Source: Escherichia phage UHP65
Sequence record: PQ511047.1
DNA: 44,416 nucleotides
Strand: one strand, 5' to 3'
The notes beneath the pieces were generated by a model. That model was not told the DNA's origin, did no database searches, and saw nothing but the letters and a program-made list of their open reading frames with translations. The position numbers and the translations under genes are program-made. This document shows positions 8,539 through 9,991 of the stretch, one piece after another. Position 1 is the first letter of the stretch; every line of letters begins with the position of its first letter.

Positions 8539-9096
8539 TCATTTCAGAATCACCGAGCGCGGGTCGATAGCTTTCATGCTGCCGTCACGTTCGACCCGGA
8601 TGAATCCAACGCCGTATTCCTGCGCATGGCGTTGTGCGTTCGTCACGGCATCAAAGCGATTGACGATTTCGTGTACGGCACGGCCCATCTTCGCTTGCAC
8701 TTGGTGGGCGTCGTAGGTCGCATAGGCGGGCTGCGACTTGCGGAACTCAACGCGCTCATGAGGCTTGCGGTCGCGCAGGCAGTATTTGCGGCCTACGCGT
8801 TCATAGTTTACCAGCCCGAAGTAAGTCATACCGGCTACGCCGTCCTTGCGGGTCTGCATACGCAGGCCATGAAGCCCGACATACTCGACGATCCACATAC
8901 TGCCGTCGCGAATATCCCGCAGCACATCGCCGCGCTCGATATCGTGGGCGTGTACCGTGAAGAACTGAGGCAGCGTGCTTGTTGGCGCGCGGAATACTTT
9001 TTTGTTTGCCGGTTGTTGTAGGCGCACGTATGCGTCCTGGGTCTGTATCGGCTTAAGAATGCGCCCGTCCGATTTACGGCGGAATAGTAATTTCAT
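8539..9096 (-). CDS. hypothetical protein (185 aa)
   Basis: ATG start overlapping upstream stop (ATGA); no motif recognised. Confidence 0.5.
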   Translation of the reverse strand: MKLLFRRKSDGRILKPIQTQDAYVRLQQPANKKVFRAPTSTLPQFFTVHAHDIERGDVLRDIRDGSMWIVEYVGLHGLRMQTRKDGVAGMTYFGLVNYERVGRKYCLRDRKPHERVEFRKSQPAYATYDAHQVQAKMGRAVHEIVNRFDAVTNAQRHAQEYGVGFIRVERDGSMKAIDPRSVILK

Positions 9097-9236
9097 TGCT
9101 CTGTTTCCTCAATCTCTTCGATAGTCTTCGTGTCGCCATCGCATACCGTAGCGATGCCGTCCATCTCATAATCTGCTATGCAGGCATCAACAGAAATAAA
9201 CTTCTGCGAGAATCCCGCCATTAGTGCTGGTGTCAT
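9093..9236 (-). CDS. small acidic hypothetical protein (47 aa)
   Basis: ATGA overlaps at both ends linking 9233..9502 and 8539..9096. Confidence 0.4.
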   Translation of the reverse strand: MTPALMAGFSQKFISVDACIADYEMDGIATVCDGDTKTIEEIEETEQ

Positions 9237-9502
9237 TTGCTCAGTCTCCAGTGTTTTCCTGCCCGCTCAATGGCAGGCTTCCGGCGTAATGTAATACGAA
9301 CACCCATTGGTTGCAAGGAAGTCCGCACATAGAATCCGTGCTTAGCCGCGAACTGGTGCAAGTACCGAGTCTGCGTTAATGGCTTCACATCATCGCGGTA
9401 GCACCAGAACACAGAATCGCCCTCATTCGCATTCTTAGCCCATATTCGTATGCAATGCAGTGGAATACCCCATGAAAGGCGTTTTGCGCGTCTGCGGTCC
9501 AT
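9233..9502 (-). CDS. hypothetical protein (89 aa)
   Basis: ATG start; part of coupled minus-strand gene chain. Confidence 0.45.
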   Translation of the reverse strand: MDRRRAKRLSWGIPLHCIRIWAKNANEGDSVFWCYRDDVKPLTQTRYLHQFAAKHGFYVRTSLQPMGVRITLRRKPAIERAGKHWRLSK

Positions 9503-9511
9503 TTTGGCCCC

Positions 9512-9991
9512 TTATTTCGCAAGCTGGGCGAATAGTTCGCGCTGGGCTTTAATCCGGGCGACGTTTGTCACTGCCGTCTCACCGATCCCGAAGCGATACG
9601 CCAGGCGCTCACGGGAGAATGCTAGCGCGTATTCCTGGATTGCCTTACGCAGCGGACCCAGGTCATCCATGCTGGCGTCCATATCGTCTAGCGCACACAT
9701 GATTGACTGGTATGCCAGTGTCGCAAACTGGCGCGCACGGTCTACGTTGCCGTTCAGCGCCTTCGCTTCGTTCAGCTTTGCCAGGGCCAGTGAGTAATTC
9801 CAGATTAGTGCTCTCATTGTTCGGTCCTTCTTAGTGTTGTCGTCAACAATCGAGGCTTTACCGGAATTAACACGAATCATCACATCGTCCAGGGTAGACA
9901 TGCAAGTCGCCCCGCTTTCATAGGTGCCCGGGTCGTTGCTGGTGAAGGTGATAGTTGATTTACCGTCTTTGATGGTTACTGGAAATTTCAT
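9512..9991 (-). CDS. hypothetical protein (159 aa)
   Basis: ATG 9991 with GAGG RBS; promoter-like TTGCGC-17-TATATT upstream. Confidence 0.55.
   Translation of the reverse strand: MKFPVTIKDGKSTITFTSNDPGTYESGATCMSTLDDVMIRVNSGKASIVDDNTKKDRTMRALIWNYSLALAKLNEAKALNGNVDRARQFATLAYQSIMCALDDMDASMDDLGPLRKAIQEYALAFSRERLAYRFGIGETAVTNVARIKAQRELFAQLAK

Follow-up and report, generated by a model that had tools for sequence, protein, structure and literature searches.

A probable genus-specific operon of small accessory genes upstream of the holin genes in Dhillonvirus coliphages

Coliphages such as T7, with its class I genes, and lambda, with its nin and ea genes, carry accessory clusters of short, coupled and unannotated open reading frames (ORFs) that are mosaic, partly dispensable and served by a promoter of their own. 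Here we present a computational analysis of a block of small genes in Escherichia phage UHP65 (sequence record PQ511047.1), whose whole stretch of 44,416 nucleotides (nt) is referred to below as the window. The block shows no sequence or profile similarity to the T7 and lambda clusters and is placed between the replication and lysis modules as opposed to the injected end of the genome. It is best read as an accessory operon specific to Dhillonvirus, bounded by the primase-helicase gene on one side and the holin-endolysin cassette on the other, and in the window it comprises seven genes from position 9991 down to 8032, followed by a terminator-like hairpin. As such it is an ordinary one, still uncharacterised: about 155 genomes already list its products as hypothetical proteins, and no result of the analysis sets the genes apart from what phages usually carry.

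Few E. coli phages are isolated more often than Dhillonviruses, which are represented in the BASEL and SECphi collections that drive defence-system research, and about two thirds of their genes are labelled "hypothetical". The Dhillonvirus determinants studied experimentally are other genes than those of the block. They include Ksap1, a SECphi18 protein of 74 amino acids (aa) that triggers KpAvs2 defence (bioRxiv 10.1101/2024.01.31.578182), the portal protein (RAZR trigger), SSB and the DNA polymerase (Retron-Eco8/Borvo escape), Nmad5 (Tmn trigger) and the anti-Tmn protein (SM_S22 ORF35). Ksap1 and anti-Tmn resemble the block genes in being small, genus-restricted and without a known primary function; they are themselves dispensable for growth and involved in defence interplay. 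However, Ksap1, and probably anti-Tmn too, is located elsewhere in the genome, and no block gene is related to them. A further point of comparison comes from the Drexlerviridae, in which a standalone SH3 protein (DUF7244) is encoded upstream of the lysis cassette (PMC13164509). Being bounded, conserved and partly dispensable, the operon described here is a clean target for deletion and for plating on defence libraries.

The window represents a Dhillonvirus, that is, an HK578-like E. coli siphophage, and is collinear with its closest relative, phage jat (44,417 base pairs, bp). Across region 8300-10400 the identity to jat is 93 %, and the same region matches 158 phage records, nearly all Dhillonvirus, including the BASEL phages GeorgBuechner and Oekolampad as well as SECphi18. 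Read 5′ to 3′ on the minus strand, the order is a gam-like gene, the primase-helicase gene (12738..10474), an intergenic region of 482 nt and the small-gene block, followed by two holin genes, the endolysin gene, a small gene, and the phosphoesterase, terminase and head genes. A sequence-only reading of the window had described a chain of four coupled genes ending at 8539. The boundaries it gave for the 159-aa ORF (9512..9991) and for the 89-, 47- and 185-aa ORFs are exact, all on the minus strand, and the run of coupled genes is real; its end, however, is not at 8539, since three more genes follow down to 8032 (Table 1).

Table 1. Features of the small-gene operon and its borders in the window. 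Net charges are computed at pH 7; pI, isoelectric point; SD, Shine-Dalgarno sequence; TM, transmembrane; dN/dS, ratio of nonsynonymous to synonymous substitution rates against orthologues in ten phages.
Feature	Position	Strand	PHROG	Properties	dN/dS
Sigma-70-like promoter candidate	10015..10054	minus		-35 TTGCGC 10050..10045, 17-nt spacer, -10 TATATT 10027..10022	
N58, 58-codon N-terminal module of the 159-aa ORF	9818..9991	minus		own SD GAGGA; fused in frame to core	
101-aa core	9512..9817	minus	9839	start M59, SD AAGGA 7 nt upstream	0.07-0.72
89-aa very basic protein	9233..9502	minus	12533	pI 11.2, net charge +14; most uniformly conserved	0.15-0.23
47-aa acidic protein	9093..9236	minus	15977	pI 4.05, net charge -9.5; ATGA-coupled on both sides	0.09-0.25
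185-aa basic protein	8539..9096	minus	10243	pI 10.2, net charge +14; most divergent gene of the block	0.06-0.62
48-aa basic protein	8396..8542	minus	13628	pI 11.2, net charge +6; ATGA-coupled to the 185-aa gene	0.04-0.31
33-aa predicted single-pass membrane peptide	8316..8417	minus		strong SD GGAGGGGG 7 nt upstream; hydrophobic peak	
95-aa protein	8032..8319	minus	2531	predicted N-terminal TM helix, Trp-rich C-terminal domain; last operon gene	
Intrinsic-terminator-like hairpin	7980..8014	minus		12-bp stem 8014..7985, then U5; abuts the holin ATG at 7979	

In the sequence, stop and start codons of the same strand overlap or nearly abut throughout the seven-gene block. ATGA overlaps, which had been claimed for every link among the first four genes, are present at 9236/9233 and 9096/9093, but the junction between the 159-aa and 89-aa genes is a gap of 9 nt: the stop codon TAA (9514-9512) is followed by GGGGCCAAA and then by the ATG at 9502. 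This junction reads TAAGGGGCCAAAATG, in which the stop and next bases, TAAGGGG, are Shine-Dalgarno-like, and the gap (9511..9503) has an identical length in the six relatives with the junction resolved. Further along, ATGA overlaps join the 185-aa to the 48-aa gene (8542/8539) and the 33-aa to the 95-aa gene (8319/8316), and the 48-aa and 33-aa genes overlap by 22 nt (8417/8396), which brings the tally for the operon to four ATGA overlaps, one 22-nt overlap and one 9-nt gap. A purine-rich SD-like stretch lies 5-9 nt upstream of each start and is weakest at the 48-aa gene. ATGA overlaps, one of which also links the two holin genes (7692/7689), occur at about 12 real gene junctions of the window, so the device is common there; the five found within 1.6 kb at this locus form the densest run in the genome. 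Coupling of this kind would yield the products in fixed proportions.

Upstream of the chain, a promoter-like site with the motif TTGGTTGCR had been noticed, and it proved to be real. In 10 of the 11 Dhillonvirus loci compared, the promoter element is kept together with the leader and SD immediately 5′ of the first gene, and in phages without the N58 module the three stand directly before the 101-aa gene. The promoter region of the window reads ATTGGTTGCGCCAACCCCGGCACCCTGCTATATTGGTTGCACATCAACATGAGGACCAAACAAAATG on the minus strand. One copy of the motif, TTGGTTGCG (10054..10046), contributes the -35 element, while a second direct copy, TTGGTTGCA (10023..10015), overlaps the -10 element and the likely transcription start; in Opt212 the two copies have collapsed into one. 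The site escaped a consensus promoter scan because its -35 element agrees with the consensus at only three of six positions. With one mismatch or none allowed, TTGGTTGCR is matched 24 times across the window where 11.1 matches would be expected, a count that no shuffle out of 100 attained; for the core 8-mer TTGGTTGC the count is 20 and the expectation 1.3. Promoters of this type precede the replication, methylase, sie-like and gam genes and also the phosphoesterase-terminase operon; thus the motif is not a marker of early genes only. It stands in both orientations relative to the genes, a pattern that resembles an operator rather than a promoter element with a direction, and TTGGTTGCR may be a candidate operator for some regulator.

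At the other end, a terminator scan identified the hairpin, which has a predicted folding energy of -24.1 kcal/mol (z = -5.9) and hardly differs in any of the 10 relatives; LM40P1, the most divergent of them, carries one more C:G pair, a compensatory change. This predicted terminator would mark the 3′ boundary of the operon. The block has a conserved promoter-like element upstream and a hairpin at its end, with one weak terminator-like match inside it (8372..8354). The hairpin fills the 52-nt gap between the block and the holin gene and leaves no room for a separate promoter, so that transcription of the holin genes would depend on read-through or on a promoter within the block itself. In 7977..8014 the hairpin ends 5 nt before the holin ATG, and its descending arm contains the only purine-rich stretch (GGGA) usable as a ribosome-binding site for the holin. 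The hairpin may gate both the transcription of the holin, through read-through, and its translation. An Rfam match to NsiR1 at 7978..8030 was below the gathering score and was discarded as a resemblance to the terminator hairpin.

Conservation in related phages, without which the proposal of an early-gene operon would have lost its footing, is extensive. In a tblastn search of 50,697 phage records, the 89-aa gene and the 101-aa core were each found in 156 and the 185-aa gene was found in 155, in every case in genomes of Dhillonvirus type, which places these genes in 155-156 of about 158 Dhillonvirus records. Among 5.8 billion proteins searched, the 185-aa protein has 431 homologues and the 159/101-aa protein 111; they are without a Pfam domain, the named sources are all phage or viral, and the longest contig that carries them, where long, is of about 44 kb. 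A scan of 185,579 bacterial and archaeal genomes for relatives of the 185-aa protein gave none. The dN/dS ratios are below 1 for the 48-, 89-, 47- and 185-aa genes and for the 101-aa core (Table 1), and from these substitution patterns the ORFs of the operon can be taken as genuine genes under purifying selection. On the plus strand, opposite the 185-aa gene, a long ORF (8155..9021) was set aside, as codon-aligned substitutions fit the minus-strand frame.

Within this conserved framework the gene content is mosaic. Among ten relatives, the 89-aa gene is present at every locus (73-89 % aa identity), and the 48-aa (87-98 % aa identity) and 95-aa genes at nine. The 47-aa gene is a variable cassette, present at seven loci and missing at three, and the 33-aa gene is a sporadic insertion found in only three and missing in the other seven. 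A junction sequence, GGAGACTGAGCAA-ATGA, recurs at successive gene boundaries, and cassettes are gained or lost at such repeated junction sequences (GGAGACTGAGCAAATGA): Oekolampad has an extra 50-aa gene between two copies of GGAGACTGAGCAA-ATGA, and Opt212 carries an extra 56-aa gene. The 185-aa gene ranges from 34 % to 97 % aa identity across phages as compared with 73-98 % for its neighbours, and the divergence ranks of the 185-aa and 101-aa genes are uncorrelated across phages, which argues for independent exchange. In phage Teewinot, a deletion has fused the 185-aa gene, at codon ~72, to the 95-aa gene, at codon ~52, and has also removed the 48-aa gene. Teewinot is nevertheless a viable, plaque-forming isolate with intact holins and endolysin. 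The mosaic content and this natural partial deletion together identify the block as accessory. The extra cassettes, of 50-59 aa, are located at duplicated GGAGACTGAGCAAATGA in Oekolampad (L003, 2740..2892) and Opt212 (L010, 2805..2984 and 1926..2096).

The products offer few handles on function, and the remark in the sequence-only reading that none carries a recognisable motif is borne out: searches of all seven proteins against Pfam, PHROGs, NCBIfam and PADLOC returned only PHROGs without known function. PADLOC gave no match to a defence component beyond a chance-level hit to Cmr5 (E = 0.013, 13.8 bits). Sequence and profile searches of the PDB with all five cytoplasmic proteins found no match, and a scan of every member of two family alignments yielded noise and a weak recurrent match to HTH_Tnp_4 only.

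More can be said of the 185-aa protein from its predicted structure. The AlphaFold model, built on a 79-sequence alignment that includes the divergent clade, has a mean predicted local distance difference test (pLDDT) score of 80. It places two small SH3/Tudor-like beta-barrels in residues 1-105, with pLDDT above 90 through residue 100, followed by a disordered, indel-prone linker (110-128), a long helix (130-161) and a conserved beta-hairpin tail (162-185). Neither a signal peptide nor a TM segment is predicted. The fold matches of this model, at 4-18 % sequence identity, include RNA-, DNA- or RNA polymerase (RNAP)-binding small barrels. The tandem barrels with a C-terminal helix-hairpin form an arrangement not found in the matched Tudor-like/KOW proteins, and to the bacterial barrels of this kind (the C-terminal domain (CTD) of UvrD/PcrA, the RNAP-interacting domain (RID) of CarD/Mfd, NusG KOW, ribosomal L19/L14e) there is no sequence-level relation. 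A Foldseek search of BFVD with the model gave confident matches to Dhillonvirus orthologues only; one weak match (E 0.018) paired a 50-aa protein of Dhillonvirus vB_EcoS_011D5 with a single barrel. In phage rolling (L008, 1942..2589) the orthologue has a C-terminal extension with a CC...CxxC motif (IVEVSKCCRAEVVRDPGGQAFCRECAGVI), possibly a zinc ribbon, and the same peptide is also read in LM40P1 (L007).

The first ORF of the operon, of 159 aa, is composite. PHROG 9839 and most homologues span residues 59-159 only, and M59 is invariant in 66 sequences. N58, the part ahead of it, is confined among the ten relatives to jat, GeorgBuechner and Oekolampad, while Teewinot retains a remnant of 19 codons; as a 50-residue module it is also fused to unrelated C-termini in other contigs (P0227, P0230, P0231), and its AlphaFold2 pLDDT is below 50. 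By this distribution, N58 is a sporadic moron-like module that has been inserted, in frame, before the conserved 101-aa gene; both the full fusion and an internal-start product are plausible. The 101-aa core is predicted by AlphaFold as a generic four-helix bundle in which a C-terminal helix-turn-helix (HTH)-like segment (RLAYRFGIGETAVTNVARIKAQ) is nearly invariant across the family. The analysis thus corrects the annotation in three respects: the jat record lacks the 89-aa gene, a fusion with an internal start accounts for the 159-aa ORF, and the chain of genes reaches the holin.

From the four-helix bundle, the charged proteins, the barrel protein and the two membrane peptides, we infer that the products are small binding proteins rather than enzymes. 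We give about an even chance to a reading in which this bounded, genus-specific and partly dispensable accessory operon supplies products that act by binding, not catalysis, most plausibly on host nucleic acid or on a nucleic-acid machine. The basic barrel protein and the basic small proteins would bind nucleic acid or a host machine that handles it, and the acidic 47-aa peptide may be a partner or antagonist. Together the products would tune the host cell (takeover, exclusion or counter-defence) and would be unneeded for replication, assembly or lysis as such. Host takeover or anti-defence, as suggested in the sequence-only reading, is a reasonable prior that fits the mosaicism and the partial dispensability. 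Several points weigh against this account. High positive charge alone is no proof of nucleic-acid binding, the block proteins show no similarity to known anti-defence proteins, and the known defence-related genes of Dhillonviruses are located elsewhere. That the block is dispensable is argued from a single natural deletion, with normal growth of Teewinot assumed. In the literature searched, transcript or timing data for Dhillonviruses were not found, and the only proteomics that turned up, for phage EE09, lacks the block proteins, with only four phage proteins detected in infected cells. Finally, the position beside the holins fits a lysis-related role as well: with the operon directly upstream of the holins and no promoter room after the hairpin, it could equally be a middle-phase or lysis-proximal unit as an early one.

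That position underlies an alternative which we consider unlikely but the strongest of the rivals, namely that the block, or at least its distal half (the 185-, 48-, 33- and 95-aa genes), is a lysis accessory in which the membrane peptides and the SH3-like protein would tune the timing or activity of holin or endolysin, with the hairpin metering read-through into the holin genes. The block stands immediately upstream of the holin-holin-endolysin genes, separated by a gap that holds little besides the hairpin, and two predicted membrane proteins adjoin the holins. In T1-like phages a standalone SH3 gene directly precedes the lysis cassette (PMC13164509), and the 185-aa protein, with its predicted SH3-like barrels, resembles DUF7244 in being encoded by a small E. 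coli siphophage on the upstream side of the holin and endolysin genes; the single-barrel 50-aa cassettes that some Dhillonviruses carry in this block add to the likeness. On a phage contig, a holin-like gene and lysozyme follow closely after the sole remote homologue of the 89-aa protein, and in Jerseyvirus a homologue of the 95-aa protein belongs to a small-gene chain adjoining lysozyme, although the homologue in an Erwinia phage adjoins an exonuclease gene and not lysis genes. However, no member of the block matches DUF7244 or any lysis family, and in Pfam neither the 185-aa protein, whole or by halves, nor the 50-59-aa cassettes from relatives had a match at E <= 1. The 185-aa protein differs from DUF7244 in having two barrels and a helix-hairpin tail and in being very basic, and three genes and the hairpin intervene before the holin; it is also devoid of a signal peptide or TM segment. 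Teewinot, moreover, lacks most of the distal half and is yet viable with intact holins and endolysin. A lower probability still attaches to the 101-aa core being a phage regulator that reads TTGGTTGCR and autoregulates its own and the other motif promoters, with the downstream genes as passengers, a proposal we hold to be quite doubtful. The core comes first after the promoter in every phage, its last HTH-like segment is nearly invariant (0.35 bits) while helix 2 is hypervariable, and half of the family members share a sub-threshold match to HTH_Tnp_4 at that segment. The motif is equally invariant in the genus, and its copies straddle -35/-10-like hexamers at about nine intergenic sites in an operator-like manner. 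Yet the Pfam HTH score is 12.9 bits against a threshold of 27, with a best E-value of 0.023; the first helix of the putative HTH belongs, in the model, to a helix of 27 residues; and other phage or host proteins could read the motif. Neither an HTH family profile match above threshold nor a fold match to HTH proteins was found for the core.

Two further possibilities concern the targets of the products. It is rather improbable, though no more so than the regulator, that the operon encodes a new genus-restricted set of binding proteins targeting the host, in which the hypervariable 185-aa and the 89-aa proteins would bind a host nucleic-acid machine (RNAP or the nucleoid, for example), with the 47-aa protein as coupled partner, in a takeover or counter-defence module without known homologues; in a variant of it the 101-aa protein would be the long-sought reader of TTGGTTGCR, a motif that would organise transcription throughout the genus. 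Less probable than any of these, and a special case of the binding-protein reading, is that the 185-aa protein binds host RNAP through its Tudor-like barrels, as the UvrD/PcrA CTD, CarD, the Mfd RID and the N-terminal domain of RapA do, and so redirects or shuts off host transcription. The predicted barrels bring these proteins up among the fold matches, but ribosomal L19, L14e, EF-P, FeoA, eukaryotic Tudor domains and designed barrels score equally, as befits a generic small beta-barrel fold. Sequence identity to the fold matches stays at the low values given above, no sequence or profile match was found, and with Tudor-like RNAP-interacting domains the fold match does not rise above the generic small-barrel background and no family profile matches. 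Were one of the products to prove a new takeover or anti-defence protein, or the TTGGTTGCR regulator, the result would be useful but not surprising.

An exhaustive HMMER search of the 89-aa protein over 1.84 billion representatives gave one true remote homologue, P0303 (33 % identity), whereas P0304 and P0305 proved on inspection to be tandem-repeat artefacts. P0303 is a protein of 128 aa encoded on Logan contig SRR5343975_795 (L015, 1283..1669) after a DUF3310 gene and before the holin-like gene; the contig continues with the phage lysozyme, a small-gene chain and terminase, a module order as in Dhillonvirus. Homologues of the C-terminal domain of the 95-aa protein, about 40 % identical, were found in about 300 Salmonella phages of the genus Jerseyvirus and in some Erwinia phages, in the gene neighbourhoods described above.

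The intergenic region 9992..10473, 3′ of the primase-helicase gene, is dense in conserved repeats. GCGGGACA/TGTCCCGC is present there about seven times, with two of the copies forming an 11-bp inverted pair (10304-10314 / 10332-10342), and the region also holds five copies of ATTGGTTGC and a second hairpin at ~10210-10250. This iteron-like layout beside the replicative helicase gene suggests a possible origin or regulatory hub. In Teewinot (L009, 2921..3190) a 53-nt unit with TTGCGCGCATTGGTTGCC and the palindrome GATATGGGAATTCCCATATC is repeated in tandem 5.1 times at 96 % identity; the equivalent place in the window, 10418..10461, has only two motif copies. Elsewhere in the window, the core 8-mer TTGGTTGC marks about nine intergenic sites: 6711/6734, 10015/10046, 10418/10453, 13268, 16224/16240, 19853/19865, 22795/22812, 24718/24731, 27436 and 43535/43549. 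Most copies are paired and straddle -35/-10-like hexamers, facing either way with respect to the gene downstream; in one case they form a perfect palindrome (24718-24739). The promoter and leader at 43549 are nearly identical to those before the 159-aa ORF.

Two ORFs elsewhere in the window touch on the Dhillonvirus determinants studied by others. The plus-strand ORF at 23121..23585 encodes 154 aa with 86 % identity to SM_S22 CDS0035, which is probably the anti-Tmn protein ORF35 of PMC11846954, assuming that the numbering matches. By look it has a long N-terminal helical region and a separate C-terminal part, as PMC11846954 describes. A 74-aa ORF that starts with GTG (24038..24262, plus strand) is placed between the Dam methyltransferase gene (23572..24057) and a phosphatase-like gene (24259..24729), to the latter of which it is ATGA-coupled; it is unannotated in jat, and by length and position it fits as a candidate Ksap1.

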